Source: an uncultured bacterium (GTDB lineage Bacteria; Margulisbacteria; Termititenacia; CAZZFK01). Taken from it: a stretch of DNA of 64,000 nt. Shown here piece after piece: positions 27,301 to 48,171 of the stretch. The stretch is taken from the NCBI GenBank assembly GCA_964653455.1, contig CAZZFK010000008.1:21949-85948 (forward strand). The letters run 5' to 3'. The translations under genes and the position numbers were made by a program. How positions within the stretch are numbered: position 1 is the stretch's first letter; the number at the start of each line of letters is the position of its first letter. Below the pieces are notes generated by a model. The model had not been told where the DNA came from. It worked only from the letters and a program-made list of their open reading frames with translations, and made no database searches.

Positions 27301-30300
27301 TATCGATGACGGGGCCGAATATTCTCGCCTGATGGTCTTTGTTTCCGCGAACGCCGTTGATGATATGGGCGTCGTGGATATCTTTATTTCCGGTGATGTG
27401 ACGAACAATGGCCTTACAGAAGGCATGACAACGGTGGATGCCTGGGTCTCGGCGAACGCAGAGGACTATGCGATCTATCTTGATCCGTACCTTTCAGAAG
27501 GGTATCGCAATCTTGAACCGTCTGACGGTAAACGTATCGTGTCGGTCAAGTTCCGCGATGCTCAAGGCAATGTCAGCGCGATAGCGACGGATGATATCCT
27601 CTTGTCCTATTTCTCGACGGAAGGACGTCCGGTCATCAGCAAGTTCTTCATCAATGGTGCTACCAGGGCGGCCGCCGAGAAGGCCAAATTCACATCAAGC
27701 AATACGGTAGCGCTCTATATCGACGGGTTCGATGTGGAAGGTGTTACTCCGACCACGGAGGGCAAGATCGTTGCCTATAGGCTTATGGGGCATATCACTG
27801 CCAATACCCAGGTGGAACCGGGTAAATGGTATCCTTATCCTGCGACCAAGATCATTCCTGCCGTCGCGCTCGCGACCAGTGAGGGTATCCGTACCATCGC
27901 CATGCAGTTCCTTGATCGTGATTATATTACCGCCAATGCGACTGACAGCGATGTCGTTGTTCAATTAGCGGCCATCAATGATCAGACGGCATCTATCAAT
28001 AGTCTTGGACGCACAAGTTCCTGGAACTATGCCTCGATCACTTTTGACCGGACCCCGCCGTTCTTCAATTTCTGGCTCAATAATCCGGTGAATATGTATC
28101 GTTCTTCATACTTTTGCCGTTCTGAAGGGAAATTGAGCGGTTCATGGAAAGCTTCGGACACATATTCAGGTATAGCCCGGTATGATTATTGTATCTATGA
28201 GGTCTCTCAGAACACAGGCTGGGTGACGGCAAGCCTTTCATATGAGACCTCGACGAACTATACGCTGATCCAGGCCTGGAAGACCGTGCCGGCAGCGCAG
28301 ATAATCAATGACCTGGCAACGGTCACATCGAACCTTGCGCTTGAGTCAGGTAAGGACGGTTATTGTTTTGTGGTCAACGCTATCGACGGTGCAGGCAATG
28401 TGGCCCAGGTCACGACCAATCTGTTGGCCGTTGATATAACCAAGCCGTATGCGACGGTGTACTATGATTCCAGTGCGCTATTATCCCGCCCCGTATTCGA
28501 TATCGATTTTGCGGATGACAGAGCGGGCTTGTACCAGGTGTCCGTCGCGTTGAACAATAAATTCGGTGCACAGCGCATCATTACGAACATCAATGAAGAT
28601 GAGGTCGGCATACCGAGCAAGAACGGTGCGTACCGTACCCTGTACAGCAAGAACTGGCGGCTGGATGATGATATCTGGGCCGATCTGGCTGAAGGCGAGA
28701 ATACGCTCTATTTCAAGATAACCGATGCGGCAGGCAATGTGGTCTATCCGTCCGACAGCGACTCGACTGGAGAAACAAGCTATACGTTCATTAAAGACAC
28801 GCTGGCGCCTACAGGTACGGCCCGTTTTAACGGCGGAGCGCTGTATACGAAGAACCTGGTTACGACGGTGAACGTTGATTTCTCCAGTGAAGGCTATTTC
28901 GGTATGGTATATATGACCAGGTATCCCGTGTCAGAGGATATGTTCCTTGAGGACCACAGCTTTGAGGATGCCGGTGATCTTGGGGTCCTCCCGAGCTGGA
29001 ACATGGTCATGAACGGGCTTTCCTCCTCGCAGGTATCGATGAGCGTGAAATTGTTCGGTTCCACCGCCACGACCAAGAATACCGCCTGTTCCATAAAGGA
29101 CGGTCTGTACGGTCTGGTCGTCAGCTTCAATGTCTCCACGCAGGGGAATGAGTCCGCGAAGCTCGGCGGGTGGGCTTTACAGAAACAGGTGAACATTGCC
29201 ACCGCGAACGTTACCTACAATTTCCACGGGTTCGTGAACGTGGCCAATATCTCGGGTATCGCCACCGGGTCGGAATGGATCGTGGCGGACGTGAGCTATT
29301 ATGATTCAACGCTCGGTCAGACGGTCCGGGTGGTCTGTCCCGATACCATATGGAACGGCGAAGCGGACAGCAAGAGCGGCTGGAACATGTTCCAGGGGAA
29401 TATATTCATCCCGAACAACAGCGAGGTCACGCTCCGGTTCACGTTCGGCGCGAAAACCTGGCAGAATACGAACGGCTATATCGTACTCGATGATATCAAC
29501 TTTATACCGGGTGGCGACCTGGTCGTGACCGAGAACAAGAGCATCTCGTTCCTGTATAACTTGGAATCGGGAGATGACGGGTATCGCAAGATCTATGTTG
29601 CTGCCCGCGATCAGGCCGGCAACTGGAAGAACAGCGAAAAGTCCATTTTCTATGACACCACACCGCCTTCCTTTAATGCGCCGAACTGCGGTGTACAGTT
29701 GTATACCATCTCGGGCAACGGTACATATCAAAAAAATAATACCAAACTGATGTGCGGGTATCGTGCCGACGACGGGCTCGGATCAGGTGTATCATTCTAT
29801 ACCTATACGATCGATGTCAGTATGATGGTCACTGCGGACGCGGACGGTGACCTGGTAGAGCCGGTCTGGACAGAGTACAAGAGCGTATCCGGGAAAACGG
29901 CAGTGCTGACCACCGATGATATTCCGACCAGACGCAATACGTCATACCGCTATCGTGTCCGTGCGGTGGATGCTCTGGGCAATACCAGTAATTATACGAC
30001 GAGCAATGTCGTCATCGTCGATGTGGATGCGCCGCAAAGCTTTGTGACGGTCTCGGCATCTCTGCCGGACGGTATCAATCCGCAGGGGTCCGGCTGGTAC
30101 AAGGATGGTCCGATCCTTGTGACGATATCCGCCGTTGACCATTCACGGGTCTTCAATACACTGTACGATCTGCCGACGCGCAATGGCTGCGGAGTCTCGA
30201 CAATTAATTATGTGAAAGGGTATGTACGTGACGGGGTGGCCGTTCTTGAACCGACCGTGAGCGTGACGATAGTATCCCCCACACAGGAAGTGACGGTCGC

Positions 30301-33300
30301 GATTGATCATGCAGGGCAGAACCTGTTCGGGTATTGGGCATCGGACGCGCTGGGGTGGACAGAAACGCCGAACTGGGTCAATTCCGAGAATCTCCATATT
30401 GATAAGGACGCGCCGGTCGTCACGAGCAACCTGCATATATACAGCTATCCGAACGCGAAGCGTTGGTTCAGTGCCGATAATCTTCCGGTGGAATATACCC
30501 TGGACGATCAGTTACGCGCCCATGTCGTGAGCGGGAACCTGCTGCATCGGGCCGATCGTCTCGGTGACGGTACATCCAGACTGTATTACAAGGTCGATGA
30601 TAATCCGACCGGCAATCTGTACGCTGATCGGCGCGAATTAGGGTCCATCTTCCCGTTCGCGGTCCTGCCGACATTGAACGGCGAGATCACCGGCTGGGAT
30701 AAGACCGCGGCCGCCGGCCTCAGTCCGTACGTGGAGCCGTTCACGCTGCGCAGTGCCGACGGCGTACTGCCTCCGCTCGACGGTGAAGGCGTGCATATCG
30801 TGTATTATTGGGCGGAAGATAAGTATGAACATGTTTCAACGGTGAATTTTGTCGATGATATACGCATCGATAACGGCAAGCCTGAGCTCAGTCTTAATAT
30901 GGGCGGCAGCTTCCAGACCGTATGGTGCACGGACCCTGCCGGCATTCAGGCCATTATCGAGGTCAGGGATTTCTATGAAACGCCGGTCTCTTATAATTCC
31001 GCATGGTATCGCGGTCAAATGCCTCCTTCAGGCTGGATGATCGATGAAGGGGAGAAGACCATAATCCCGGGTTCGGGTATCAAGAGCTTCTGGTACCAGC
31101 TGAACTCAGAAATACCGACCGAGGTCACGTTCCCCGGGGAAGAAGATCCGCTCATCGATTATCTCGAGTATCGTTTCACGAAGACCTTCGTGGTACCGAT
31201 CATGACCAACGGGTATAACGTACTGAGATATATCATTACGGATAATGCCTATAATGTGGCGGACATACATTCCGGGCATCTGGAGTGGCATTCGGACCTT
31301 CGTTCCTGGATATCGGACTCCGATACGGGCATGATCAGGTACATACGTCTGGACAATGAACCGCCGACGGCAGCTGCAGTGCTCCTGAACCGGTATAAGG
31401 CCGCCCCGTTATATACGAACAACCGGTTGGTCTCCTGTAACCTGCAAGCTCAGGATTTCGGTATCGGCGTGAAATACGCGATGATCTACGGCTATGATGA
31501 TTCCATACCCGATGCGGAGAATAATCCGTACGCCTGGACGGCACTTGAGCCGACGATCAATGTTCTGTACCAGTTCTTTACGACCAATACCTGGAACATG
31601 ATCGCGGATACGGATGCGGACCGGTATTGGGATTTCGATAACAATCGCAGCCCGCGTGCGATCGTTGATATGCATAAGTACATATATCTCGAGGATAGGG
31701 ACGGAACAAAGAACGTGCAGGCGGTCTTCGCCGATGATTTCGGCATGCCGTATGAGAGCGTGTCTGCCGATGAAGAATGCGCGTACGTGACATATCAGTC
31801 CTGGAGGGATAATGTGTCCGCGAACGGACAATATCCCGTGTTCACCACGGCGGAGAAAGCACGTCTTGATGCGATCCCGTTCGAGAAGTGGCCGACACGG
31901 GCGGTGTACATCGCGCGCATGCCTGCGATAGAGAACCATGCCAGCGTGACCGCGAGCACGCTCATCATCCTCGATCGTCAGATCGTGGCGGGCAGTGTCA
32001 CGTCCAGTACCGTATTACAGACCAAATATGGCCCGTATGTGACCACCCGGAACGTTAAGCTGTCCATCTCGCATGATGATCCCTCAGAGCTGAGCGGCAT
32101 CGACGCCGTGATGATCTATGGCGACCTTGCGGAGAACGGGAAGAACAATGTATGGCTGCCGTACACCTCCGGCAGCAGCCAGGATATCACGGTGCTCATC
32201 CCTCAGGCGGAGTACGATTCTGTCACTATCGACCTGTACGTGGTCTGGCGCGATCGTGCGGGCAATATCAGCACGCCGGTCACGATGAGCTTCCAATATG
32301 AAACACCTATGCAGGCGGATAATCCGCAGTATCGTATCAATTTCCCGACCGCGGGATGGTATATGACCACACGTAATGTCTCGGTGCTCCTGAATTTCCC
32401 GGGAGCGAACTATGTACACTTTGTCGGCGATGTGGATAGCACGTTCAGTACCTTGAATTACAGAACGAACGTTTCCTGCATGCTGTCCGAAGGTGATGGC
32501 CTGAAGGCCATGGGTATCTGGCTCGAGGACCGGCTGATCTCGACCATCACCATGACCCAGAACTTCCTGCTCGACCGCTCTGCACCGTCCGGTACGGACA
32601 ATGTGAACACCGGTATCATCTATGAGGACCAGAACGGTGCGACCTTCACGCTTTCCTTCTCTGATGTACCGACACCCGGCATCCAGGTCTCCGGCATCAA
32701 GAAGATCTATTATCAGATCAATAGTGAGGCCGTGGTCACCGTGGAAGTGCGTGATGCTTCCGGCTATTATTCGGCGCCGACCGCGAACAAGATCACGGTC
32801 ACTATCCGCAATAAGAGCGCGCATAATCAGTTGAAGTATTGGGCGGAAGATATGGCCGGGAATATATCCGCGGTCACTGCGATAAGCGGTATCAAGGTAA
32901 ATACGCTGCCGATAGCGGTACCGCAGCTCAGTCCGGTCACGGTCAATCGGTACACGGATGTGCTCCCCGGAGAGGACGTGTATTACGTGAACAGCAGGAC
33001 CGTGACCTTCAATTTCTCCGCGGTGAATGCGGACCGCATGTGGCTCTATGGCGATATCGTTGAGGACGGAACGGGACCTGTGGTCATCACGGTCGGCGGC
33101 GTCACCAAGCGTTCCGTTCAATTGACCGGCGCCGAGAATGTCGTACAGCATGTACGTGTCGTCTATGGCGATGATTTCTCGAGCATCGGAGGTAAGACCA
33201 TCTCGACCACGCTCAATATCATCCTTGATACGGTAGCTCCGGCCAGCCCGTCCCTTGTGTCCCTGTCGGCGCAGGTCAGCGCGTCAATATACTGTACCTC

Positions 33301-34240
33301 CATCACACCGTTGCGCTTCCGAGTCCATGGTAACGGTTCGGATGTGGGCAGCCAGTCGATCGCCATCAAGAAGAACGGCGTCGATGCGGTACGGTCCAGC
33401 GAGGATGTGACCCTGGTGAGCAAGCTCGCTGTGGATTTCGCGAAGCCCGGAGAGCAGAGCGTGTTCTCCGTCGTTGCCCGCGACCGCGCCGGCAATGAAA
33501 GCGTACCGGTGACGTTCAATGCCCTGTTCAATCCCAACGGCGGTGTGCGTCTCCTCTCCGGCGATCTGCCTGACGATGTTGATGTGACCGTCGAGGTCGT
33601 GGACCCGAACGATGAACGGATGCAGCAGGCCAATAAGAAATTGAAAGGAGTTATTGCGAACACCCCGCTTGAAGGTACCGTACGCGATTTCACGGCGAGC
33701 GGAGATGTTTTCAACGGCACCGAACTTGAAATGGTCATGCCGTTCCCGACCGCGCTCGGCAGCATCAACCCGTATGACCTGAGGATATATACCTATGATC
33801 CTCTGACCGCCAAGTGGGTACAGGTCCAGGGTGAACATGTTGTCGATCTCGAGGCCCGGGTGATCCGTGTACGCGTCACGCACTTCTCGATCTATCGCGT
33901 GTTCGCGGTCAGACCGTTCGCGAGCAGTCTTTCCAGTGTTCGCGTATACCCGAACCCGTTCAAGCCGGATTCAGGCGACCGCAGCCTGGGCGGTGCGGAG
34001 GATACGTCATATATCACGATCGATAATATCACGCAGACCGCGAAGATACGTATCTACACGATCTCCGGAGAGCTGGTCCGTATCATCGAGGCTGACGAGG
34101 GCGTATCGCAGCTGGAATGGGATGCGACCAACACCGAAGGGGAGCAGGTCGCCAGCGGTGTATACATTTACCTGATCACCGATAAGGACGGACATAAGAA
34201 GATGGGCCGCATAACGATCATACGCGGAGAGGTAGAGTAG
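15320..34240 (+). CDS. Giant secreted multidomain surface protein (6306 aa): Gly-rich region, Pmp-like beta-helix, 3x FG-GAP propellers, Ig-like/cadherin-like domains, LamG-like domain, T9SS-type C-terminal sorting domain
   Basis: A single uninterrupted 18,921-nt ORF. Signal peptide MIMHTRTSGLLKNVLMTAGIMLCVFGSAPAFS. A Gly-rich low-complexity region spans roughly residues 60-270. A right-handed beta-helix with GGAI/FxxN-type repeats (AAGGAIYSLGS…FNSTFLSN) maps to about nt 17940-19170. Three blocks of FG-GAP repeats carry DxDxDG calcium loops (for example DVNGDGYDDIVVA, GDLDGDGYDDFMVGAPY) at about nt 19620-20850, 21470-22400 and 23370-24850. Numerous beta-sandwich domains follow, then a C-terminal VRVYPNPF…GVYIYLIT domain. 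Confidence 0.9.
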   Translation: MIMHTRTSGLLKNVLMTAGIMLCVFGSAPAFSLETQNLAFTVSGSFSIPAGATSVNLAVTLVGAGGNGGDRYYSTALYYSQGGGGGSGYLATSANLIPAASTYYVVVGSPTNVAAGDGSATQLRATSAAGTLLLSATGGTGGITGTTVKGGNGGGGYGGGGGGGAYRSGNIITGGTGGAGSAGAGGSGGAALAGSRGGGGGGGYDSIGTPASGGTASGNAGTGGFGGGNGGTATSVGGTLPSGGYGPYVNGAYRGSGGTGAGFSGAFSAANNKGSNGYAYITMTYAPDVTPPVLNGVPYYSKPFSSGTMMFKWYAASDGTGAGVSDYYYEIYRDECVTDNLVSSGWTTGLSFTYSGGIPGATYYCRVKARDAAPTQNVSTFSDYSQGLLVTNPAIVAKQLTILTIKPSGSQAKKDAHGYYFNGSSATAGDGYELRVNDTTSGEQAHPSLAALKNRNFVAVWSNAGNIYGKIISPTGDIVKAEFKINAYSQYDALSCYPRVAGLSNGMFVVVWEVYNSSGKRDIYIRRFAADGTPYSSTASGSGSTTEVQVGNNVPTLDKRQPDIAALGNGRFVVVFDMTSASTGKSVINKAVYYDTGSLSSPIQLVAIAPIDAAQDCVYPRVASFGPTRNEYAVVWGTEYSISNPPNPPNPAGGDICMISYDNANFATASARLVNQTTSLKQFNPVITGYATGFAVAWASESGSDIGNDGYYFYYRNWGISGYQANDTWSNVFFRQYDVYGVSTNAQQIVEQGSRLTSYLDPAINAIESTASINGMIALCYLKTQDSEALLYQTTYTIPAHTSEVFARFYSLEGSSLSDTSTTINTYTAGIQDGIALASMGAVDKSYLMTAWNSAGQDGSGLGVFARQYVIGPRVLNLTRGKSYATIQAALDDAENNDQIVLIEGVFNLDEPLIFKPGLKVTLRAYTEQGVSRANTIISGQYVSRLMEFGAGVSVSIENLTLVQGAVEETNGYFGAVVSCNSSAKSELFFRNVLFKDNYAAQGGGVMFLQGATRAKAPVVLLETCEFSNNYAADLGGSAIYAVNASVTVDRCLFNGNNSTAAGGAIYSLGSYIYAFNSTFLSNKASTYGGVYYGGEDPTSGQDGELLAERCTFARNSVASTGRGDVLYLANNTAFTARNCLFHHNYLSTAQTYAMVINTSSRAYFYNSTFSAHRGVALWTAGANSIFQAYNTLFTDCGPATSMFAGTALDAIVEHCSVDEALPSKIGTTGTIVGDPKIAFSSYPFLVKGSPCVDSGIYLADVTVDIEAVARPQGVSYDIGAYEGARLFVSDLYPGNSFAAPQDLQIQAVLWMVSCNAQYPLTVTINDLNGATKDATLVFLSTETLYQTDKYQGIIVRVDDTHSRLLVYAKDSSFLENGDHFSVQINSVHTPPRGELYRTDDPEPFFNDEQMEFFVAGVPFLSEWYAGGLTRNNTVSYNSSVGNGADIDQDGYPDLIVGDAGFNGETGQAFLYYGGPEQERDVKAVFTGVTPNSRFGAMVGMAYINKDGYGDVLIGAPGEKKIYLYYGTKALAGASALDTEHPSFVITAPDDSAYGFGEKFDVGDVNGDGYDDIVVAVPSYNSDAGAVFVYNGRSLLAGGKSSAATYRTLSGSGQGFAQAAIVGGDLDLDGVEDIVVGLPDGGTDKAGLAYVYFGAAGTPDFFTAGSLMTKTLQAQVPAANDHFGYSLAKGKDINHDNFADILVGKYTEPGDSGCAWVVYGGVRSDIGSSVKVRTIVQPRDIERDNENVSANSSAQQFGITVASAGDLDGDGYDDFMVGAPYAGSTGMGMIFVYMGGKLIDESFDAYNFNGYVIAGHDAGAHTGASLLNIQDYNADGYDEVAFNDRFAGKNTVHVMYNAAATDIAAPVITYAMPRTGMAGVPENPTFNITIYDRGKSGLNLASIEVRLYPRGMGEADSLEAYLQRKIINSAGLDTAGSTGFNSAQVKDAYMVLTLASGVTVPIAAGIPVDDYNDALGMVKAISIYFTLNDVLESSEGYELEVKAQDWGAVLPAYQYTGQYFSGLALTPNIISFSTNQKLFVSGNTGTNVKSIGDFNGDGLDDVAVFTPGATYGEIYNTTNASWFVGIPAPGTNANKGYVLLYFGGPDIKFDTPNVILVGGDTSGTFATDVFGIPQVTLTHADSGDVYHDVVVLEGKAVNDSGYSRVHVFSGQAMDKTDTPVIMSNGVPSQVSKNVYIDRGIPLYDINGDDYPDIAVSDGGTSNAVYVLYGSGTGFQTNKSVISGPAGSAFGSALAECGRTLVIGAPNASYGDFEYRGAVGVVANNTDETLLPDKIVAVGEMWLGARAGAHFGASLASGYFNDTYTSPNTVATGAYPDIAIGAPNDDQFAENAGSVTIFFGKSALFTPLPVATPDVVLLPESIDSEFGTRLAAAKYLSTPAHYKRWALGYDRYNKDYFDNYDDLIVSARTYDNAMASTTGNGKIYIYAGGTTLSQTADAGYLGGAREELSLITNGGDVLGMNSDSLFVIKASEGAGQFYLLQNRDIPDTVYPTFVRVYPPNDSYDVSVDSDIIFEVSDASGILKESLIVYRYRKDYTDTSREIVKAGVVADKSQTNPIKEYELVSADIGSSGTTVRFTLSPHPQNYEPLPGEYPAGQWTESEPVNVDLYIGDKRTVWVSDTKKNIQSLMTKLNYGFMTKFKANEAQKIQLLGEEDMPNTYFGSSIASVGDVNADGYTDFVIGEYGNNQYGPYSGKAYLYLGSGDFYELARADLTLTLGSGTASSRFGYKVAPAGDMNNDGYDDVAVTALNSGSTGAEVFVLFGGPGVISGLNSARWDLTFLNTYATVVQGAYPQDGFGTAVYGNGDINGDGYDDLLIGAPYTDIDSKEEAGRVYVILGRKYESSYGQTGARHLNPDNEGGARGPIRATELAELSADTLSSFDPSDTNGTLRGFCISGTTAYERFGSAVMSGVNINGDTAVVAVNNAANVNATKNTEVSELLIGAPGTSHAKGAVHVYSFNTGTKVLSRATLLTGEAEGDQFGSSLTSMGDMTNDLELLGTEYEEFAVGAPYNNANGTDAGSAYLYLGKSDCASVTSAYLAFYGQNAGDAFGYALANVGNVDNDQYGNNDLAISAPFNARGGKNAGRVYIFGSALSSEKPHTLVMDKMADYANEGEAGYVFGYDVSGLGDLDGDFVPEYLIGAPSYASNNIENRGRVFLYTNPDDFGPTLNLAWLNPQDGSTGNKKVHSYFDETLSATVNIPLTIRLYAKDNRIVYINGSSVELRGEDENKAYTYRFSNPVTGVNYYTIHNRKIVEFFVVHPYYRYGEMVDVTANIIDVCGNKLGANMALTPNYMGAPYTFRFQVEENPYDGPSKLVAKVNPVPDTNGAGLYGDSKLYTDNPNISVALAARDMKGGVCYVNFGMGSLDIMQVVDNIPVSQLSGLAGAVTADMFDDDGSTAITFNINVSANNFKVYNPYSSFGRATLSSGDGVKTFAFQAWDMSLNPSEVVTVSIILDTLPPTISERCPTPGSTGVANQVSVSFTASDAGSGINLENLSVVVARGADRYQYFVPYGLQSVVFAPFTENCSTNTSVADYFAQINNGSLQDGIGCISTEGIADLSAGTMLRSGSSVYNDGVISLTLSGFDYTQDALELAFRSDITVEGIVEQGYALSLERVSGQTYSRLSLKKVLPKSTVVLATRNLTTVDSSQTAPRLQVVMNGSYLKVFWNNELKIEMQDNTYITGRVGIAAPAGKHIALDQIDIVRLPAITITAGDDADTQLVHQNNFENDTAEFTNGTDVAAGRVDDPDTDGIEPINQVLRLTSSPTTISFYTDASSIPGLASDHVINFKYLVSNAGSAGTVFFRVQDQNNGYILSLEGSTVRWGKLVNGTYYDSESGWCATSDITLASRTNAVNEWSSYTLKVNGTKFTLLQDAVVLSSVTDVDAAHPAFISGGFGFAAIGGNIIYLDDLSASNILKNKLYATISLPYFNYEDEISISINIEDMTAADYPTHRIVDHFSFTVSPDYRAPYDPSVVIDDGAEYSRLMVFVSANAVDDMGVVDIFISGDVTNNGLTEGMTTVDAWVSANAEDYAIYLDPYLSEGYRNLEPSDGKRIVSVKFRDAQGNVSAIATDDILLSYFSTEGRPVISKFFINGATRAAAEKAKFTSSNTVALYIDGFDVEGVTPTTEGKIVAYRLMGHITANTQVEPGKWYPYPATKIIPAVALATSEGIRTIAMQFLDRDYITANATDSDVVVQLAAINDQTASINSLGRTSSWNYASITFDRTPPFFNFWLNNPVNMYRSSYFCRSEGKLSGSWKASDTYSGIARYDYCIYEVSQNTGWVTASLSYETSTNYTLIQAWKTVPAAQIINDLATVTSNLALESGKDGYCFVVNAIDGAGNVAQVTTNLLAVDITKPYATVYYDSSALLSRPVFDIDFADDRAGLYQVSVALNNKFGAQRIITNINEDEVGIPSKNGAYRTLYSKNWRLDDDIWADLAEGENTLYFKITDAAGNVVYPSDSDSTGETSYTFIKDTLAPTGTARFNGGALYTKNLVTTVNVDFSSEGYFGMVYMTRYPVSEDMFLEDHSFEDAGDLGVLPSWNMVMNGLSSSQVSMSVKLFGSTATTKNTACSIKDGLYGLVVSFNVSTQGNESAKLGGWALQKQVNIATANVTYNFHGFVNVANISGIATGSEWIVADVSYYDSTLGQTVRVVCPDTIWNGEADSKSGWNMFQGNIFIPNNSEVTLRFTFGAKTWQNTNGYIVLDDINFIPGGDLVVTENKSISFLYNLESGDDGYRKIYVAARDQAGNWKNSEKSIFYDTTPPSFNAPNCGVQLYTISGNGTYQKNNTKLMCGYRADDGLGSGVSFYTYTIDVSMMVTADADGDLVEPVWTEYKSVSGKTAVLTTDDIPTRRNTSYRYRVRAVDALGNTSNYTTSNVVIVDVDAPQSFVTVSASLPDGINPQGSGWYKDGPILVTISAVDHSRVFNTLYDLPTRNGCGVSTINYVKGYVRDGVAVLEPTVSVTIVSPTQEVTVAIDHAGQNLFGYWASDALGWTETPNWVNSENLHIDKDAPVVTSNLHIYSYPNAKRWFSADNLPVEYTLDDQLRAHVVSGNLLHRADRLGDGTSRLYYKVDDNPTGNLYADRRELGSIFPFAVLPTLNGEITGWDKTAAAGLSPYVEPFTLRSADGVLPPLDGEGVHIVYYWAEDKYEHVSTVNFVDDIRIDNGKPELSLNMGGSFQTVWCTDPAGIQAIIEVRDFYETPVSYNSAWYRGQMPPSGWMIDEGEKTIIPGSGIKSFWYQLNSEIPTEVTFPGEEDPLIDYLEYRFTKTFVVPIMTNGYNVLRYIITDNAYNVADIHSGHLEWHSDLRSWISDSDTGMIRYIRLDNEPPTAAAVLLNRYKAAPLYTNNRLVSCNLQAQDFGIGVKYAMIYGYDDSIPDAENNPYAWTALEPTINVLYQFFTTNTWNMIADTDADRYWDFDNNRSPRAIVDMHKYIYLEDRDGTKNVQAVFADDFGMPYESVSADEECAYVTYQSWRDNVSANGQYPVFTTAEKARLDAIPFEKWPTRAVYIARMPAIENHASVTASTLIILDRQIVAGSVTSSTVLQTKYGPYVTTRNVKLSISHDDPSELSGIDAVMIYGDLAENGKNNVWLPYTSGSSQDITVLIPQAEYDSVTIDLYVVWRDRAGNISTPVTMSFQYETPMQADNPQYRINFPTAGWYMTTRNVSVLLNFPGANYVHFVGDVDSTFSTLNYRTNVSCMLSEGDGLKAMGIWLEDRLISTITMTQNFLLDRSAPSGTDNVNTGIIYEDQNGATFTLSFSDVPTPGIQVSGIKKIYYQINSEAVVTVEVRDASGYYSAPTANKITVTIRNKSAHNQLKYWAEDMAGNISAVTAISGIKVNTLPIAVPQLSPVTVNRYTDVLPGEDVYYVNSRTVTFNFSAVNADRMWLYGDIVEDGTGPVVITVGGVTKRSVQLTGAENVVQHVRVVYGDDFSSIGGKTISTTLNIILDTVAPASPSLVSLSAQVSASIYCTSITPLRFRVHGNGSDVGSQSIAIKKNGVDAVRSSEDVTLVSKLAVDFAKPGEQSVFSVVARDRAGNESVPVTFNALFNPNGGVRLLSGDLPDDVDVTVEVVDPNDERMQQANKKLKGVIANTPLEGTVRDFTASGDVFNGTELEMVMPFPTALGSINPYDLRIYTYDPLTAKWVQVQGEHVVDLEARVIRVRVTHFSIYRVFAVRPFASSLSSVRVYPNPFKPDSGDRSLGGAEDTSYITIDNITQTAKIRIYTISGELVRIIEADEGVSQLEWDATNTEGEQVASGVYIYLITDKDGHKKMGRITIIRGEVE
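33938..34237 (+). other. T9SS-type (Por_Secre_tail / FlgD-Ig-like) C-terminal sorting domain of the giant protein
   Basis: VRVYPNPFKPD…AKIRIYTISGELVRII…EWDATNTEGEQVASGVYIYLIT matches the hallmarks of type-A CTDs (YPNP motif, …iYd.sGrlV…, GvYfy…). Confidence 0.6.
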
Positions 34241-34274
34241 GTCTTTTCCCGGATAAAGGATATACGGATGATGG

Positions 34275-34306
34275 ACAGGGGCCGCATTATGCGGCCCCTG
34301 TCTTTT
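34275..34306 (+). terminator. Rho-independent terminator downstream of the giant gene
   Basis: A perfect GC-rich hairpin caggggccgc-atta-tgcggcccctg (10-bp stem) is followed by tcttttat. Confidence 0.6.
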
Positions 34307-34504
34307 ATGTATAGGGCCGTATTTCTTTTGCTAAGCCCCTTTTTTAGTAAATCCCAGGTATAAAAAGTCGTTCAGGTGGGCATACCTACAGAGGATAGGC
34401 GAACATGAAAATGGACCAGATAAAAGGCATACATTTTTTTAGTGTTCAATGACGATAGTATGGGTGTACAGCACCATACATGCATTTCTTTTGTGGGGGA
34501 AGAA

Positions 34505-35698
34505 ATGAAAAAAGATATCAGGACGGTAATCATTTCTTTATTGATCATGTGCGTTTGCGTAGCCTCGGCACAGGCCGGCGGCGTAGGGACTTCAGGCGCG
34601 AACTACCTCAAGATCGATGCGGGCGCACGTTCTGCGGCCCTTGGCAGTGCGTATGTGGGTCTAGCCAATGATATCAACGCGTTGTACTTCAATCCTGCAG
34701 GTCTTGTTGCTATTCCGCATGCGGCCGTTGATACGATGCAGCTCAATTGGCTGGCGGATATCACGCAGCAGCAGATCGCAGGCGTTATTCCGGTCGAGGG
34801 CTGGGGCGTGTTCGGAGGTTATTATTCCAGTCTTGCCACACCGTATGATAAAGAGACCAAGTATGATTCGGCGTACGGATATGCGTCCACGGGGGATCAA
34901 TTCAACAGCGAAGTGAAGGTCATTGATGTCGCCTATGCCTTTTCCATCAATAAAGAACTGAGCGCCGGTCTGGGCGTGAAGACCATCGAAGAACGTCTGG
35001 CCGATGTCAAAAAGACCGGCATGGCGGCGGATGTCGGTCTGCTGTATCGGGGCTTCTTTTTCAAGGAACTGTCGGTCGGTGCGGTCGTTCAGAACATCTC
35101 GGTATCTCCTCTTCGAACGGACGAGCCGCTCCCGCAGACGATCGTTATCGGGATGGCGTATACGATGAGCTTGTTCGAGACGCAGCGCCTGACCTTCCTT
35201 TCGGACGTCGGGATCCCCAATGACGGTGTAACCGCGCTGGGTGTCGGGGTTGAATATGCACTGAACCGCTATATCGCTTTCCGCGTGGGATATAAGGATA
35301 AGGTCGGGTTCACATTGGGCGGCGGACTTTCGTTCGGCAACCTTAATCTGAACTATGCATATGTGCCGTATGGGGAGCTGGGCAATTCGTATCGTATCGC
35401 CGTCGGCTATGATTTTGATACTGTCGATACTGAAGGAACGGTCGAAACGCCTGTCGAGCCGGTGAAAGAAATGACCAAAGAAGAGCTGTTCAAGGAAGAA
35501 AAGAAGGCCGCTCCGGCAGTGAAACCGGCCGCTACAGCGGTCGAGAAAAAGATAGAAACGCCGGCTGCCGATAATAAGTCCTTGTTCGAAGAAGCGAAGC
35601 CTGTTGAGACGGAAAAGAAGGTCGAAACTCCTGCCCCAAAAGCGGTAGAAGCGGTCCCGACGGTAAGTGCGGGATTCGACGGTCTCTTCGATCAATAA
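34505..35698 (+). CDS. FadL/TodX/PorV-like outer-membrane beta-barrel protein with a Lys/Glu/Pro/Ala-rich C-terminal tail
   Basis: Signal peptide MKKDIRTVIISLLIMCVCVASAQA. The N-terminal motif LGSAYVGLANDINALYFNPAGL parallels the FadL N-terminal hatch motif ([25 protein letters not shown]). A barrel-like amphipathic C-terminal strand ends …RIAVGYDF, followed by about 90 aa of low-complexity KEPA-rich sequence. The start is set at the in-frame ATG 34505. Confidence 0.65.
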   Translation: MKKDIRTVIISLLIMCVCVASAQAGGVGTSGANYLKIDAGARSAALGSAYVGLANDINALYFNPAGLVAIPHAAVDTMQLNWLADITQQQIAGVIPVEGWGVFGGYYSSLATPYDKETKYDSAYGYASTGDQFNSEVKVIDVAYAFSINKELSAGLGVKTIEERLADVKKTGMAADVGLLYRGFFFKELSVGAVVQNISVSPLRTDEPLPQTIVIGMAYTMSLFETQRLTFLSDVGIPNDGVTALGVGVEYALNRYIAFRVGYKDKVGFTLGGGLSFGNLNLNYAYVPYGELGNSYRIAVGYDFDTVDTEGTVETPVEPVKEMTKEELFKEEKKAAPAVKPAATAVEKKIETPAADNKSLFEEAKPVETEKKVETPAPKAVEAVPTVSAGFDGLFDQ

Positions 35699-35754
35699 CG
35701 AATACCGGGCAGTGAATAACTAACGACGGTCCGTTATCTACTGAGCGCTGTTCG

Positions 35755-36381
35755 TTATTTTTTTGTATGTTCGATGAAGTTCTTCAGTATCATCAATCCC
35801 CACGGGCTGCTTTTTTCCGGATGGAACTGGGTCGCGAAAACAGTGCCGTGTTCAATGGCTGCCGTGAACGGGATGCCGTACGAGCTTTGTCCGCTGACGA
35901 TACTTGTGTCATCCGGTCTTGCGTAGTACGAGTGCACGAAATAAAAGAACGCGTTATCGGGTATCCCTTTGAACAGGACCCCCGGTCTTTTTTGTTCGAC
36001 CTGGTTCCAGCCCATGTGGGGTATCGGTAGGCGTTCCGTGGCAGTATCGCCGAAGCAGAACAGGGGGACAGTCCCTTTTATAAGCCCGAGCCCCGCCGTA
36101 TCCGGAGACTCGTCCCCGCGCTCAAAAAGGACCTGCAGCCCGAGGCATATGCCCAAGAACGGTGTTCCCTGCGCGACCTTTTCTTTGATGATCGATATCA
36201 GGCCGTACTCCTTGAGGTTCTTCATGGCCGCACCGAAGGCCCCGACGCCCGGCAGGATCAGTGCGTCAGCGCTTTCTATGTCCTTGGGACTGGATGAGAT
36301 GAGCGCGGAATATCCGAGCTTTTCAATGCTTTTTTGCACGCTGCGGAGATTACCCATGCCGTAGTCGATTATCGTCAACAT
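35755..36381 (-). CDS. hisH: Imidazole glycerol phosphate synthase glutamine amidotransferase subunit HisH
   Basis: MLTIIDYGMGNLRSVQKSIEKLGY plus a class-I GATase triad (GICLGLQ…, C-terminal H/E). 208 aa. Confidence 0.9.
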   Translation of the reverse strand: MLTIIDYGMGNLRSVQKSIEKLGYSALISSSPKDIESADALILPGVGAFGAAMKNLKEYGLISIIKEKVAQGTPFLGICLGLQVLFERGDESPDTAGLGLIKGTVPLFCFGDTATERLPIPHMGWNQVEQKRPGVLFKGIPDNAFFYFVHSYYARPDDTSIVSGQSSYGIPFTAAIEHGTVFATQFHPEKSSPWGLMILKNFIEHTKK

Positions 36382-36400
36382 GATGCGATATTCCTTTGTT

Positions 36401-37411: not shown

Positions 37412-37425
37412 AAGTTAGTTGTTTT

Positions 37426-37480: not shown

Positions 37481-37613
37481 AACTTTTATTCACACACTGT
37501 TCGTTTCTTGCCACTTTTTCTCGTATCTTCAGCAGAGTATAACACAGAATATGCTGGACAAAAATGTTGAAAATGCTACAATAATGCTGAAAAATCAAAC
37601 AGGGGGGCGTGTT

Positions 37614-39830
37614 ATGTCTCATCCCATATTCGGGAGGAGAAGATTTTTCTTCTTATTACCGTTGTTCCTTTTCCTGTTGTTCTCGACAGCTGTTTTTGCT
37701 GCTGAGTATGAATATACATACGATCATATGCAGTCCATGATCCCCGCCACTTCGATCGGTCCTGATTTTGTCAGTGTATCCATGCTGCAATTCCGTATAA
37801 AAGCGACGAGCAATAATATAACGATAACATCCCTGACCATCGGCAGTGGGGATGCTTCCACTGCTTCTCCGGGTGTATATGCACCGAATACCACAGATCG
37901 GGAGTCATATATCAAACGCATCGAGATATATTGTGATGCTACCGGCAAGGATAATGAAACGTATGACGAAGGAACAGACCCTTTGGTCGGCAGTATGGAC
38001 CTGGGGATCACTAATTCAAAGTATGAAGCGATCTTGCCGATATCGGGTGTTCCTACGTTGATCTCGGCCAATGTGACAGGCAATACAAAGGCGTTCTATG
38101 TGTTCTATTCTACGGGAGCTTCGATGGTCCCGGGGACAGTGGTCAAAGCGCAATTACGTAATGTCGGTATCTCTGAAAGTCCTGCGTTATGTAAAGCGAC
38201 ATTACCGGCAGCGTATGAGTGTTCGTTCGTCCTGGCCACGGTCAATATCTCTTTGTACTCCGTTGCCGCAGCATTACCGGTAGTTCCTACACCGACATTC
38301 TTCGCCTTGGGTGGAGAAAGGGATATCCCGGTGCTCACGTTCACCCTTAAGACCACCGAGGTCCTTTCCAATGTTTCAATAAATATAAAGAACGTTAAGA
38401 ACTCATTCATTAATAGCGGCTGCGGAGTAGATAGGGTCCGTATCAAGCGCAAGGACCCGGATTCAACGGTCACGGTCGTGGGCTACACCTCGGTATTCCA
38501 GGGCAGTTCAGTGGCTGTTGTCCCTATCCAGTCCATTCCGTACGATAACGGCGGGGAGTGTGTCTATACGGTCTACTATGATATGTCCCCCGGCTCGCTC
38601 GCTAATACAGAGGTCGCGGGGCAGTTGGCCAATATATCCGGTCCGGGGGTCGTTTTCAACTCGGGTACTTTGCCGGCTCCGCTCACGCCGCCCTCTTTTA
38701 ATGTCGTTCAGGCGCCTATCTCGGCATTGTTCGTAACGACGAACACCCAGCAGGTCAAAGCAGGCGATCAGTTCGTGTGTCAGCTCGTTTTTAAGCATAT
38801 CGGTACTGAGGTCAGCTATACGAGAGAGTTACAGATAGATGAAGTGCGTCCTGTCTTTTATAACGGGAATATCAATGGTGCCGATATCTCATATGAGTAT
38901 TCCTACCAGTTCCAGCGATGGGACAGTGATGGCGGGTCATCAACGACAACACAGTCCGCGGTCCTGCAGAACGCACAGCAGATCACGTATAACTTCCTGG
39001 TCACGGTCTCGAATCCCAAGACCGTCGGTATGATCAATGTGGATGCGTACATCAATTACCGTGATTTTGGTTTTGTGGCGAACAAACCGCAGCAGATCAT
39101 CATGTCCAGATATCTCAAGTCCTCGAGTTATATTTCCGCGGCCAAGAATTCTCTGGTGGGTTATTTCATGAACACGGAGTCCGATGCCGACTATGATTTT
39201 TCGTACAGATTACCGTCCTATATCGCCAGTATGAACGTACAGCCGTACGGGGTCGGCGCCGTCAAACGGTTCATGAACGGAGATAATGTCGCGAGACAAT
39301 CGAAACTGTTCGTGACGCTCGTCAATGAGGGGAAATTCTATGATGCCGATACGCTCAAACTGTACCTGAACGGGACCCAGCTGATCATCGTTACGGATTA
39401 TACGGTCGCGAACGGCATCATCACTGTGAAGAACCTTGGAACGAAGAGCGGCGTGCTCAGTATCTCGTGTGCGTCCGGGCCTTCGCTGCTCGAGACCGCA
39501 TATATCAAGTATTACATAGAAGAGGAGTTCACGATCAAGGACCTTATGGCAGGGCCCTCGCCCTATAAGGCGGCGGACGGTGACCTGTATTTCAGCTGTC
39601 AGCTGCGTGAGGCGGCCACGGTCAAGATCTCCGTGTATGATTCGGCGGGTCAATTGATCTGGAAGTCTGAAACCCTCGAATGGGGCGAAGGGTACAATGA
39701 ATATGCCTGGAACGGTAAATTGGACGTGGGCGGGGATATCGGTCGCGGGACCTATGTCGCATATGTTGTCGCGAAGTGTACGCGAACGGATTCTGAGAAA
39801 CGACAAAAGATAAAGTTCTCGGTGTTCTGA
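37614..39830 (+). CDS. Secreted protein with a C-terminal FlgD-Ig/T9SS-like sorting domain (function unknown)
   Basis: Signal peptide MSHPIFGRRRFFFLLPLFLFLLFSTAVFAAEY. The C-terminal ~100 aa read …KISVYDSAGQLIWKSETLEWGEGYNEYAWNGKLDVGGDIGRGTYVAYVVA…, which fits the …iYd.sGrlV…W.G…GvY… pattern. The ORF track starts at 37551; the in-frame ATG at 37614 is preferred. Confidence 0.6.
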   Translation: MSHPIFGRRRFFFLLPLFLFLLFSTAVFAAEYEYTYDHMQSMIPATSIGPDFVSVSMLQFRIKATSNNITITSLTIGSGDASTASPGVYAPNTTDRESYIKRIEIYCDATGKDNETYDEGTDPLVGSMDLGITNSKYEAILPISGVPTLISANVTGNTKAFYVFYSTGASMVPGTVVKAQLRNVGISESPALCKATLPAAYECSFVLATVNISLYSVAAALPVVPTPTFFALGGERDIPVLTFTLKTTEVLSNVSINIKNVKNSFINSGCGVDRVRIKRKDPDSTVTVVGYTSVFQGSSVAVVPIQSIPYDNGGECVYTVYYDMSPGSLANTEVAGQLANISGPGVVFNSGTLPAPLTPPSFNVVQAPISALFVTTNTQQVKAGDQFVCQLVFKHIGTEVSYTRELQIDEVRPVFYNGNINGADISYEYSYQFQRWDSDGGSSTTTQSAVLQNAQQITYNFLVTVSNPKTVGMINVDAYINYRDFGFVANKPQQIIMSRYLKSSSYISAAKNSLVGYFMNTESDADYDFSYRLPSYIASMNVQPYGVGAVKRFMNGDNVARQSKLFVTLVNEGKFYDADTLKLYLNGTQLIIVTDYTVANGIITVKNLGTKSGVLSISCASGPSLLETAYIKYYIEEEFTIKDLMAGPSPYKAADGDLYFSCQLREAATVKISVYDSAGQLIWKSETLEWGEGYNEYAWNGKLDVGGDIGRGTYVAYVVAKCTRTDSEKRQKIKFSVF

Positions 39831-39853: not shown

Positions 39854-42800
39854 TTGAAACGCTATAATTGTTTTTTCGTCGCTGTGCTATTACTGATGTG
39901 CTGTTGTGTCGGCGGGGTCGGCGCAGCACGTCGTTCCACTGATCCGATGACGACCATTACGGACGTCCGTGCGCTCGGCATGGGGCGTGCCGGCATGGCG
40001 ACGCTCGGCGGGAGCAATGCGCTGTTCACGAACCCTGCAGGGTTGGCCAAGGTAAAGACCATGGCGGCAAGTACGTTCTCCACAAAGGTCCTGGAAGATT
40101 TCAATTATTTCGGCGTCAACGGGGCGATGAACACTGGATGGGGTGTTGTCGGGCTCGGATACGGCGGCATGAGCGTTGATGAGATCCAAGAGACGTTCCG
40201 TTACAAGATGGACGGCGAAGTCCGTAATTACTCTCTCGGGACCTATAGTGCCGGCAGTAAGGTGTTCATGGTGGGGTATGCGACAAAAGTACCGTTCCCG
40301 TTCCTGAAAGACCTTTCTCTCGGTATCGGACTTAAGAGCGCTACGGAATACATCGACGCGACCGACGCCACATCCTTTGAGACCTCTTCGATCTCTGGGT
40401 TCGGCGGCGATATCGGCGTGCTGTTCCCGTTCCGTATGTTCGGGCACGACTATGAATGCGGTATCGCCAAGATGAACGCGTTCTCGCCCCAGTTCACTGA
40501 CGATGAAGGCGGTGACCCTTCGGAATATGCGGCGATCAATCGTATCGGTATATCCACCGGTATCGATCTTTTCGGGCAGCATGTGATCGCAGCCCTCGAT
40601 AATGATAATTTCGGGACGCACCTGGGGACGGAAGTGCAATTGCCGGGCGGGTTCGCGGTACGCGCCGGGACCGACGGGACGGATTATTCCATGGGGCTCG
40701 GCCTGACGATCTATTCGGTGACCGGGTTCGACAATAAACCGCACGCCATCGCGATCGATTACGCATGGGTCGCGAACAATGCGCTCCTTGATAATGTCGG
40801 TGTGGCGGACAATCTGAACATGATCAGCTTCAGTTATCTGGGGGTCTCTCAGACCGACAAGCCGATCCTGACCTCTCCGTTAACGGGCAGGACGTTCACG
40901 GTACCGACGATCACGGTCGAGGGGAAAGCGGAGCAGGACACAGAGGTCACCGTGTATGTGAACAATGTCCCTCAAAAGGTCGTTAAGACCGAAGCGAAAG
41001 GTACGTGGAAAGCGGAAGGTATCACCCTTACGCAAGGCCGCAACGAGGTGAAGGCCTTTGCGCAAAAAATGGATTTTGCCGACAGTGAGTTCTGTGCGCC
41101 GGTCATCGCCTACGGACAACTTTCCGCTCCGGAACTCTCGACGACGATCGAGAAGCGCGGGAACCGCGTGACGATAAAAGCTTCGAGCCCGGTCGAACTG
41201 CGGCAGGTAGCCACAAAGCTGCCGAACGGAGAGACCATTGCTTTGACCTTTGATCCTCAGACCCAGTTGTGGGTCGGGACCTGGCAGGTGCCTTTTGAGT
41301 TCATGGATAAACAGGTAGCACTGCAGACGCGCGGTGTGGATACGCAGGGGAATAGGACCGATATCGTTTCTCAGAAGGTGCTCGCCAAGAGCATTATCAT
41401 GCCTGCGGATAAGACCGTGACGACAAAACAATATCTCGAGGTGAAAGGATATGCGCCTGCACGTGTTGCACATATCACGGTCGCAGGACAGGAGGTCATG
41501 CCGAGCACGGACGGATCATATACGGCGATGGTCGATCTCGCGGCTGTCGGTAAACAGAACATCGATGTGGTCATGACCGATGCGGCCGGCCGGACCAAGA
41601 CCTCTGAAGTGAGGGTCTTGCGTAAAGCTTCCGCTCCTGATGTCGGGACGGATTCCTTCGCGTATGCGGCCATCAATGATCTCTTGACCATGGGAGCGAT
41701 GCAGCCCGTGTCCGAGAATAATTTTGAACCTAAAAAGCCGATCACACGTGCCGAACTGGCGGTGCTTGTCGCTAGGGCGAAGATGCTCCCTCCGGGGACA
41801 GCGACGTTCACTGATGTGCCCGCGAACACGAGCTATGCCGGAGCGGTCAGTGCCGTCGTCGGCGCAGGTCTGCTCGGTGCCTATCCTGACGGAACGTTCA
41901 AACCGCAAGGGCTGATCACACGCGGGGAGGCTGCGGTCGTCCTGATAAAGATCTATGGCGTGGAGCTGCCGGAGGGCACACCGGAAGAGGTCTTTACGGA
42001 CGTGAAGCCGACGCATCCGCTTGCCGGGGCGATATCCGCCGCTGTCGAGAACGGTTTGATCGCTGTCGAGGACGATTCCTTCTATCCGGACCAGATGCTC
42101 GATCGTGAAACGGCGGCTTTCTGGTTCTCAAAGACCAGAGAGATGAAACAGCAGTTAAGAGAGCTGCAATCATGGCCGGACCTCAATGTGAACGGGTCGG
42201 AGCTCTCGGATATGGAACGCATGGAGGGCCAGCTTGTGGTCGATTTTGCCGATGCGCAATGGACCGCGCAGGAAGCAGCAGCAGGGCTCAAGCTCATGGA
42301 GCCGGTGGACCAGAGCATCACCTATGAGCCGTACGCGATCGTTAAAGGGCTGGTCACGCCTGCTGTTGCGGTCTCGGTGAACGGACAAGCGGTCATATTG
42401 GAGAGGAACGGTTCATTCGTCGCGGGAGTTCCTCTTGAGCTCGGGATGAACCTTATTCTTGTAGAAACACCGACCGAAAAAAGAAAGGTCAGGGTCTTGA
42501 GGGAAGCGGCGTTCACTGATGTGCCCTCCGGCAATGCCGGCGATGATATCCGAAAGCTCGGCTCTCTGGGGTATCTTGAAACGGACCGTTCGTTCTATCC
42601 GGAACAGGGCGTGACGCGACGTGAACTGGCTGTGGTGCTCGTACGTTCCAAGGAGGACCAGACCCCCAGTTCCGCTCCGCGGCTTCAGGACGTGGCGGCC
42701 GATGATCCCCAGCTGATGTACATACAACGTGCGGTCGATCTCGGCTATTTCACGGTGAGCGCGAACTATTTCATGCCGAACACGGTGGTCTCACGCGGAG

Positions 42801-45683: not shown

Positions 45684-45694
45684 TAAGGAGCAGT

Positions 45695-48168: not shown

Positions 48169-48171
48169 TCC

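Follow-up and report, generated by a model that had tools for sequence, protein, structure and literature searches.

The secretion system termed type IX (T9SS) is said to be specific to Bacteroidota or to the Fibrobacterota-Chlorobiota-Bacteroidota (FCB) group (PMC12398890, PMC10994853). Its proteins PorZ and PorU contain C-terminal domains (CTDs) that are retained on PorQ and PorV, respectively (PMC10202324), and in PorP-PorE-PG1035 and SprF-SprB cognate PorP-like barrels carry type-B CTD proteins, with complexes of carrier, CTD protein and wall-binding component (PMC9143113). The long extracellular loops of PorV were found to protrude into SprA and to wrap the CTD, and a conserved lysine of the CTD contacts PorV (PMC10994853). 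Cognate PorV-like barrels for retained CTDs have so far been a hypothesis in reviews (PMC10202324). In the present analysis, a stretch of 64,000 nucleotides (nt) from an uncultured bacterium of the Margulisbacteria (contig CAZZFK010000008.1, positions 21,949 to 85,948; hereafter the window, to which all unprefixed coordinates refer) was found to contain the gene of a giant adhesin ending in a CTD, followed by the gene of an outer-membrane barrel of the PorV/PorQ family. From the sequence comparisons and the structure models we lean, if only slightly, towards the view that this barrel serves as a cognate partner on which the giant adhesin encoded upstream of it is docked and anchored.

The giant adhesin and the adjoining barrel

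The first pair of genes (pair 1) and the elements belonging to it were as follows, with lengths in amino acids (aa).

15320..34240, plus strand: giant secreted surface protein of 6,306 aa with a signal peptide, beta-helix and FG-GAP repeat regions and a C-terminal sorting domain
33938..34240, plus strand: CTD of the giant protein (last 100 residues), a seven-strand beta-sandwich, T9SS type-A/FlgD_ig-like and similar to the CTDs of PorZ and PorU
34273..34303, plus strand: intrinsic-terminator-like hairpin 3′ of the giant gene, with a 14-bp stem containing 10 G-C pairs, then TTTTATG
34407..34504, plus strand: conserved non-coding block 5′ of the barrel gene, a putative own promoter and 5′ leader, from the alignment of three orthologous intergenic regions
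34505..35698, plus strand: gene of the PorV/PorQ-family outer-membrane barrel, 397 aa (assigned by NF033709, AlphaFold and orthologues), with the signal peptide at residues 1-24, the plug-like N-terminal segment and barrel at residues 25-304 (34577-35416) and the disordered tail at residues 305-397
35417..35695, plus strand: acidic tail rich in Lys, Glu, Pro and Ala (residues 305-397) with three acidic-Leu-Phe motifs, the Leu-Phe pairs being at residues 328-329 (35486-35491), 360-361 (35582-35587) and 394-395 (35684-35689)

The giant protein was found to contain an N-terminal signal peptide and Pfam matches to FG-GAP, Beta_helix, FlgD_ig and CHU_C. Its CTD starts with VRVYPNPF at 33938, in frame with the open reading frame (ORF) 15320-34240, and passed TIGR04183 (Por_Secre_tail; 26.1 bits, cut-off 23) and Pfam FlgD_ig (PF13860; 31-36 bits, gathering score 27), while it remained under the gathering score of PF18962 (17.6 bits) and below the type-B model TIGR04131 (17.7 versus 35 bits). 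The best NCBIfam match of the CTD was to the PorZ model, at its C-terminal end of ~90 positions (65.8 bits), and the CTD was the only part of the giant protein to resemble the C-terminus of PorU (22.7 versus 420 bits). The AlphaFold model of the CTD, for which the input alignment contained ten database homologues, showed seven strands (predicted local distance difference test score, pLDDT, of 82), and Foldseek placed PorZ (5m11; E 7.7e-8, 29% identity) first among the structures of the PDB, followed by PorU (6za2; E 1.3e-4) and then by the cargo CTDs of NucA, RemA and RgpB. The T9SS-type CTD that a sequence-only reading of the window had seen at the end of the giant protein was thus recovered by two family models and by a PorZ/PorU-like fold.

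The barrel protein was found to start with a Sec signal peptide (MKKDIRTVIISLLIMCVCVASAQA followed by GG, that is, with the junction between AQA and GG). An alternative GTG start at 34442 (418 aa) was rejected, as the ATG at 34505 gives this canonical signal peptide, a GGGGG Shine-Dalgarno sequence and an N-terminus like that of the orthologues. The mature protein matched the PorV/PorQ family model NF033709 (131.4 bits, cut-off 90) with residues 29-304 covering profile positions 1-326 of 326, and the last barrel strand (...YRIAVGYDF) ends at residue 304. The AlphaFold model, built from an alignment of 117 sequences, had a mean pLDDT of 86, with ~92-98 per 10-residue block in the barrel and 50-60 in the tail. 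In the Foldseek search against the PDB, Flavobacterium johnsoniae PorV from the SprA complexes came first (8gl6_F, E 5.7e-14; 6h3i_F, E 8.7e-12; TM 0.59-0.67), whereas the structures of FadL, TodX and TbuX were matched at ~1e-8, a difference of about six orders of magnitude. The sequence-only assignment had likewise been an outer-membrane barrel of the FadL/TodX/PorV fold, with a hatch-like motif at the N-terminus.

The more specific models were found to fail. The barrel scored 36 versus 250 bits with the PorV equivalog NF033710, 35 versus 325 bits with the PorV2 equivalog, 12.7 versus 585 bits with the FadL equivalog NF007988 and 71.3 versus 220 bits with the PorQ equivalog NF033711, the last being the best among the specific models. 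Pfam Toluene_X (PF03349) gave 22.3 bits against a gathering score of 29.7, UPF0164 gave 30.5 bits, above its gathering score, and PorP_SprF (PF11751) gave no match at E<=1, in agreement with the earlier impression that the barrel is not of the PorP/SprF type. The comparison with hidden Markov models (HMMs) that had been suggested along with that impression therefore placed the protein in the PorV/PorQ family at the family level, and none of the PorV, PorQ, PorP/SprF or FadL models was passed. Among the 117 relatives, 84 matched Pfam PorV and 97 matched UPF0164.

The closest named homologues of the barrel were 'PorV/PorQ family protein' entries of Candidatus Margulisiibacteriota at NCBI (56% and 52% identity), and the orthologues were 52-63% identical. 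The parts of the locus are of known kinds. The identity to solved PorV was 16%, and direct sequence similarity was confined to the N-terminal motif TxGxxFLxxxxxARxxxLGxxxVxxxxDxxxxxxNPA, common to both. The barrel comprises ~275 residues with short extracellular loops, versus 345-367 resolved residues in PorV. It is a relative of PorV and PorQ at the family level only, within a family of 19,430 cluster representatives (profile search, E<=0.001) that are mostly uncharacterised. The higher score with PorQ than with PorV, together with the PorZ-like CTD of the neighbouring protein, points to an anchor-type rather than a shuttle-type relationship.

Pairing of sorting-domain genes with barrel genes

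A second pair was found in the window 2 kb downstream of pair 1.

37551..39830, plus strand: second CTD-bearing secreted protein of 759 aa, the cargo of pair 2, with FlgD_ig and a signal peptide
39854..44041, plus strand: second PorV/PorQ-like barrel, fused to four Glucodextran_B (Ig-like) and five SLH domains, 1,395 aa

The 759-aa protein contained a divergent CTD (FlgD_ig, 28.9 bits at residues 677-741; CTD profile, E 1.4e-11), followed after a gap of 23 nt by the gene of the 1,395-aa protein, of which the N-terminal ~340 aa form the barrel part (PorV_fam at residues 35-243, E 3.7e-13, 49.8 bits and below the cut-off), with SLH at 205.9 bits and Glucodextran_B at 119 bits. The fusion of barrel and SLH domains appears to be rare, with three database matches, one of them annotated as 'TraF, partial' from Margulisbacteria. 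Pair 2 was kept in the Margulisiibacteriota single amplified genome (SAG) AM-324-J15 (GCA_042562495.1). The order of pair 1 was kept in the same SAG and in a second Margulisbacteria contig (GCA_018813205.1), with a gap of ~210-260 nt. The giant orthologue of the SAG contained 5,874 aa and was 39% identical over a 2,462-column alignment (last 3,300 residues as query); the cargo thus diverges faster than the barrel, which was 61% identical.

The wider neighbourhoods were taken from 80 genomic loci obtained in one scan of GTDB species representatives, with crude ORF calls and with search patterns from a 7-sequence alignment, which replaced a 117-sequence alignment too diverse for this use; the CTD profile was seeded with the CTD of the giant protein. 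A CTD gene on the same strand was found immediately upstream of 47 of the 84 barrel genes (56%), versus 94 of the 771 other genes of the same loci (12%), giving an odds ratio of 9 and a Fisher p of ~1e-18 that is only indicative because the loci are not independent samples. Immediately downstream, a same-strand CTD gene was present for 15/84 barrel genes. Drift of the CTD profile was rejected as the source of the enrichment, as a single-sequence phmmer search with the giant CTD found 45 of the 47 upstream neighbours. The 84 barrel genes were distributed over Elusimicrobiota, Poribacteria, Lentisphaeria, Firestonebacteria, Aerophobetes, Calditrichota, Ignavibacteria and others, and the pairs outside the FCB group included examples from Poribacteria (a CTD protein of 2,096 aa with a 2-nt gap), Lentisphaeria, Elusimicrobiota, Firestonebacteria, Endomicrobiales and Aerophobetes. 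Closed chromosomes with such pairs outside the FCB group are OY969767.1 from Elusimicrobia and OY764061.1 and OZ242315.1 from Poribacteria. A scan of metagenomes yielded three short contigs only.

The look-up from the CTD side gave a similar picture for the four nearest CTD homologues with readable context, three of which adjoin a barrel gene: two were followed by it, the third was present in a locus of two tandem units of a barrel and then a mini-CTD protein, and the fourth was without a nearby barrel. The locus L087 (4905-8372) contained two tandem units in reverse order, each a PorV-like barrel (~375 aa) followed by a CTD-only protein (125-200 aa), which suggests that the relationship of CTD and barrel exists even without a large passenger. 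In the Lentisphaeria metagenome-assembled genome L063, two tandem pairs of CTD protein (1,519 and 1,575 aa) and barrel were found at 5423-11032 and 14446-20240, with gaps of 0 and -4 nt; this layout mirrors the two pairs of the window in an unrelated phylum.

An origin of the enrichment in porU-porV operons was considered and rejected. Many of the upstream proteins of the FCB loci belong to a family of 1,000-1,200 aa (L046 6711-9860, L011 6439-9993, L057 6413-9985, L016 2474-5548 and ~30 similar loci) from Ignavibacteria, Calditrichota, Rhodothermales, WOR-3 and KSB1. The barrel gene directly downstream of them is always of the PorV/PorQ family, but is neither PorV nor PorQ nor PorV2. No match was found with Pfam for the proteins of L046, L011 and L057 or with NCBIfam for those of L046, L011 and L016. 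Their C-termini align plainly with the giant CTD, including the insertion after the PNP[FY] motif. As the upstream proteins are not PorU and the adjoining barrels are not equivalogs, they make up a separate uncharacterised set of CTD-protein/barrel pairs, which in FCB bacteria exists side by side with the canonical T9SS and which is also present outside this group. A different arrangement was found in L056 (7192-12064) and ~20 similar Ignavibacteriaceae loci, where a TonB-dependent receptor (935 aa, CarboxypepD_reg and Plug) is located immediately upstream of the barrel and an NHL-repeat protein (~360 aa) immediately downstream, with no adjoining CTD protein.

The barrel could instead be a general component, either a PorV-type shuttle or a PorQ-type attachment subunit, of a complete and unreported T9SS serving all CTD cargo, with the adjacency being incidental operon history like that of porU and porV. 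Its family membership, the rank of PorV as best structural match, the CTD that passes the type-A sorting-domain model and the NCBI name of the orthologues agree with this explanation, which we nevertheless hold to be unlikely: the barrel is far below the PorV, PorQ and PorV2 equivalog cut-offs, two divergent barrels within 10 kb each follow their own divergent CTD protein and are both kept as pairs, and no Peptidase_C25/PorU domain was found by Pfam in the giant protein. The T9SS, moreover, is described solely in Bacteroidota and the FCB group (PMC12398890, PMC10994853), and no paper tying Margulisbacteria to type IX secretion was found in the literature. The dedicated pair of cargo and partner proposed in the sequence-only reading fits the conservation in relatives, the second pair in the window, the enrichment of CTD genes and the PorZ/PorU-like CTD.

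The intergenic region, the tail and the chromosomal setting

The gap between the giant gene and the barrel gene was counted as 264 nt (34241-34504), one less than the 265 nt given in the sequence-only reading, which had rightly placed the barrel gene on the same strand after a terminator hairpin. The region folds unusually well (z = -4.85), the hairpin stem dominating the fold, and a hairpin was found at the equivalent place in the SAG (L002 9782-9802) and in L003 (2731-2751), with sequences that differ among the three genomes. The hairpin is followed by the conserved block, which contains ATACATTTTT-N13-ACGATA[AG] (ACGATAG in the window), then GCATTTCTTT and then the GGGGG Shine-Dalgarno sequence. 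The motif of the block, located at 34429-34457 in the window, at 9911-9938 in L002 and at 2801-2828 in L003, occurs once in the window, where 0 are expected by chance, and across all fetched loci it was found at the orthologous positions (L002/L007 and L003) and in two stray matches (L011 and L039).

A scan for the sigma-70 consensus between the genes detected no plus-strand promoter, and the conserved block does not fit that consensus. ACGATAA resembles the -10 element of sigma-28 promoters (GCCGATAA); the -35 element does not fit. The block is possibly an alternative-sigma promoter or a 5′ leader. Rfam gave a sub-threshold RmaA match alone for 33000-37600 (25 versus 57 bits, E 0.28), which was treated as chance. 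Since the hairpin and then the conserved block are located 5′ of the barrel start, the barrel gene probably has its own promoter and leader, and the two genes are probably kept adjacent and transcribed separately. A terminator followed by a barrel-specific conserved element argues against obligatory co-transcription. If anything, an adjacency kept without obvious need for co-transcription would indicate selection on the linkage of two co-adapted partners.

A gene with its own upstream element past a terminator might also encode a channel of the FadL/TodX type that takes up hydrophobic compounds, as with the UPF0164 FadL-like proteins of Treponema, and that is next to the adhesin by coincidence, with no link to it in function. 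The FadL fold, the UPF0164 match above the gathering score, the weak Toluene_X match and the FadL/TodX structures matched at ~1e-8 speak for such a channel, and one relative of the barrel is without a CTD neighbour. PorV, however, is the better match in structure and in HMM score, Toluene_X is below its gathering score, the FadL equivalog is missed by far, and the ninefold enrichment of upstream CTD genes and the two conserved pairs are left unexplained. We therefore consider this explanation very improbable.

The tail of 93 residues (E16, K13, A13, V11, T10, P9; net charge -8) agrees with the extra tail of ~90 residues rich in Lys, Glu, Pro and Ala that had been noticed in the sequence. It was predicted by AlphaFold to be disordered with a short helix at 325-328, and neither Pfam nor NCBIfam gave a family match or a wall-binding domain (OmpA_C, SLH, LysM, SH3b). 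The tails of the orthologues contained 70-95 residues of variable sequence in which short motifs were retained. The motif T-x-E-E-L-F-E-E was found ~25 residues past the barrel in the orthologues, with an invariant F329, followed at the end by the terminal motif [DE]-x-L-F-[DE], retained in orthologues down to 41% identity in the forms DGLFDQ, EDLFAD, DELFED, DDLFEE, DDLFAQFAF and DVLAQFDF. Among the 117 relatives, the barrel was followed by OmpA_C in 9, by SH3_3 in 3 and by TPR in ~16. The C-terminus is taken to be periplasmic because of these OmpA_C, SH3 and TPR fusions and the SLH domains of the paralogue. The fusions show just this, and that the C-terminus is often tethered in other members.

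The sequence-only suggestion that such tails might bind the cell wall was not supported for this protein, in which the tail is disordered and free of a peptidoglycan-binding domain and its conserved parts are the acidic-Leu-Phe motifs. Wall binding by the tail is plausible for the family and unproven for the 397-aa barrel protein, and recognition of the Leu-Phe motifs by a protein partner is no less probable. The barrel could have as its main role the structural tethering of the outer membrane to the cell wall, as OmpA or OmpM does, within a neighbourhood of cell-surface genes in which the nearby CTD proteins are unrelated surface proteins. The five SLH domains of the paralogue, the OmpA_C, SH3 and TPR domains behind the barrel in relatives and the conservation of the tail as a feature within the lineage speak for a tether, but the tail contains no recognisable wall-binding domain and the strict order of CTD gene and then barrel gene across phyla would be unexplained, which makes this explanation decidedly unlikely as the main function. 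It is not mutually exclusive with an anchor role, as seen in PorP-PorE (PMC9143113).

The window was found to be collinear with contig JBHPMC010000008.1 of the SAG, and the identities for the other shared proteins were 57% for hisH, 57% for the ROK kinase, 38% for the second CTD protein (same position), 52% for the barrel-SLH protein, 75% for GroES and 80% for GroEL. Margulisiibacteriota are placed in the Cyanobacteriota/Melainabacteria group of Bacillati in the NCBI taxonomy, outside the FCB group. In the literature, nothing was found on T9SS in Elusimicrobia, and T9SS was absent from the content of the paper on the Trichoplax symbiont. No T9SS core genes were found in the 21-kb syntenic locus of the SAG. 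A 2,438-aa ORF in L077, considered as SprA among the large ORFs of the fetched loci, was rejected as a PQQ-like beta-propeller repeat protein.

Pair 1 is bordered by two genes of histidine biosynthesis.

14097..14828, minus strand: hisA (TIGR00007, 255 bits), left border of the 21-kb segment with pair 1
35755..36381, minus strand: hisH (TIGR01855, 232 bits), right border

The genes hisA and hisH are often neighbours in his operons. In the window they are ~21 kb apart, with the giant gene and the barrel gene between them on the opposite strand. The adjacency of barrel, hisH and ROK kinase genes was kept in the SAG and in the metagenome contigs L091 and L093, and the arrangement flanked by hisA and hisH is therefore considered to be old. 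Upstream of the his genes, two large surface-type proteins were found, one of 1,323 aa with BNR, OmpL47 and choice-of-anchor-X matches (9369-13340, minus strand) and the other a LIC20035-family adhesin of 518 aa (7791-9347, plus strand), neither with a CTD by the CTD profile or with an adjoining barrel gene. A Tad/Flp pilus locus (44898-55532) is located between the barrel-SLH gene and groES/groEL and contained CpaB, a secretin, a CpaE-like ATPase, TadA, a TadE-like protein and two unmatched ORFs taken as TadB/C-like; as groES directly follows the barrel-SLH gene in the SAG, the two genomes differ here by an insertion or a deletion of the Tad locus. The remaining window was found to be ordinary chromosome, containing flhB/flhA, pyrD, an NtrC-type regulator, groEL, nusG, rplA and rplJ along with the Tad pilus locus.

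Proposed arrangement and comparison with described systems

In the arrangement proposed for pair 1, the giant adhesin and the barrel would both be exported by Sec, both carrying signal peptides, and the barrel would be inserted in the outer membrane with a periplasmic tail, as suggested by the fold and by the OmpA, SLH and SH3 fusions of relatives. The CTD of the adhesin would remain uncleaved and attached to the barrel on its extracellular face, so that the protein of 6,306 residues is kept at the cell surface; the gene pairing and the closest structural relatives of the CTD point to such retention, comparable to PorQ-PorZ, PorV-PorU and SprF-SprB (PMC10202324, PMC9143113). The acidic disordered tail with its Leu-Phe motifs may, more speculatively, contact a periplasmic partner or the wall. 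For passage across the outer membrane the adhesin would need either a translocon of the SprA/Sov type, encoded at another place in the genome, or a different route.

Several points weigh against this arrangement. The case for a cognate anchor is built from genomics and from structure predictions. The two genes are separated by a strong terminator and by a conserved upstream element distinct from it, and no T9SS core genes (porK/L/M/N, sov, PorU and others) were found within the 64-kb window. Among the 155 CTD genes of the loci sampled, only 47 were found with a barrel of their own directly downstream, so that the pairing is not universal, and in a tailed relative (L092, 41-43% identical) the upstream gene is rlmN-like and does not encode a CTD. 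The giant protein has Arg where the CTD family, close to its end, has a near-invariant Lys, in a column that may correspond to the conserved Lys in contact with PorV. The short barrel and short loops, which also count here, make a PorV-like shuttle role less likely than an anchor role.

A wider form of the proposal can be offered as a tentative and rather doubtful possibility. Cassettes of a CTD protein and a PorV/PorQ-like barrel, present in Margulisiibacteriota, Elusimicrobiota, Poribacteria, Lentisphaeria, Firestonebacteria and Aerophobetes, might form a surface-display module complete in itself, of greater age and much wider distribution than the T9SS of Bacteroidota, and in lineages without SprA/Sov they would function independently of the canonical translocon. 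In such a module the cognate adhesin would be received and held by the barrel, and would be coupled to the wall or to a periplasmic machine through the periplasmic tail, with Leu-Phe motifs in the window and with SLH, OmpA or TPR in other members.

In the literature searched, no description was found of such cassettes in Margulisiibacteriota or other non-FCB phyla, of a family-wide rule that the CTD gene precedes the barrel gene, of the SLH-fused paralogue or of the conserved Leu-Phe tail. The biology of T9SS has been built almost entirely on Bacteroidota, and the same two-part logic is encountered here in a candidate phylum related to Cyanobacteria. If the pairing is physical, it would give a simple rule for predicting the anchoring of giant adhesins in many uncultured diderm phyla, a handle on which part of secretion and sorting by the type IX route is minimal and ancestral, and compact barrel-CTD pairs suited to co-expression or structure prediction.

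Among the described systems, FadL, TodX and TbuX and the UPF0164 proteins of Treponema resemble the window barrel in the barrel fold and the plug-like N-terminal segment, with UPF0164 above the gathering score. FadL, TodX and TbuX are weaker matches than PorV in structure and HMM score, and FadL transporters are not known for a genomic association with CTD proteins. The OmpM/Slp-type porins are outer-membrane tethers with SLH domains in diderms of the Terrabacteria type. The paralogue at 39854-44041 likewise joins an outer-membrane barrel to SLH domains that bind wall polymers, which fits a Cyanobacteria-related lineage; its order is reversed, with the barrel N-terminal and the SLH domains C-terminal, it is PorV-like rather than porin-like, and the 397-aa barrel is without SLH.

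The PorV shuttle of type-A cargo in F. johnsoniae (6h3i, 8gl6) was the best structural match and contains the same N-terminal motif. In contrast to PorV, to which it is 16% identical, the window barrel is shorter, has short loops and appears to be dedicated rather than general.

SprF-SprB and PorP-PorE-PG1035 are similar in that a dedicated barrel gene adjoins the gene of a giant surface adhesin, anchored via its CTD, and the peptidoglycan-linked complex of PorP-PorE-PG1035 parallels the SLH, OmpA and TPR fusions in the family of the window barrel. PorE is a lipoprotein with TPR and OmpA_C-like domains, whereas the wall-binding part in the family of the window barrel, where present, is fused to the barrel. 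The window barrel also belongs to another subfamily, with no PorP_SprF match, and its CTD partner is type-A/FlgD_ig-like and not of type B.

The PorQ-PorZ and PorV-PorU pairs of the Porphyromonas gingivalis attachment complex were found to differ from pair 1 in several respects. The window barrel is an equivalog of neither PorQ nor PorV and contains a periplasmic tail of 93 residues, its partner is an FG-GAP/beta-helix adhesin of 6,306 aa and not a sortase or a carrier of A-type lipopolysaccharide (A-LPS), the lineage is Margulisiibacteriota-like and not Bacteroidota, and no T9SS core was found in the 64-kb window. The likeness consists in a FadL-fold barrel together with a protein whose C-terminal beta-sandwich is retained on the barrel, in a giant CTD nearest to the CTD of PorZ and then to that of PorU, and in PorQ as the best specific model of the barrel, along with an upstream CTD gene in what we take to be an arrangement resembling that of porU and porV.

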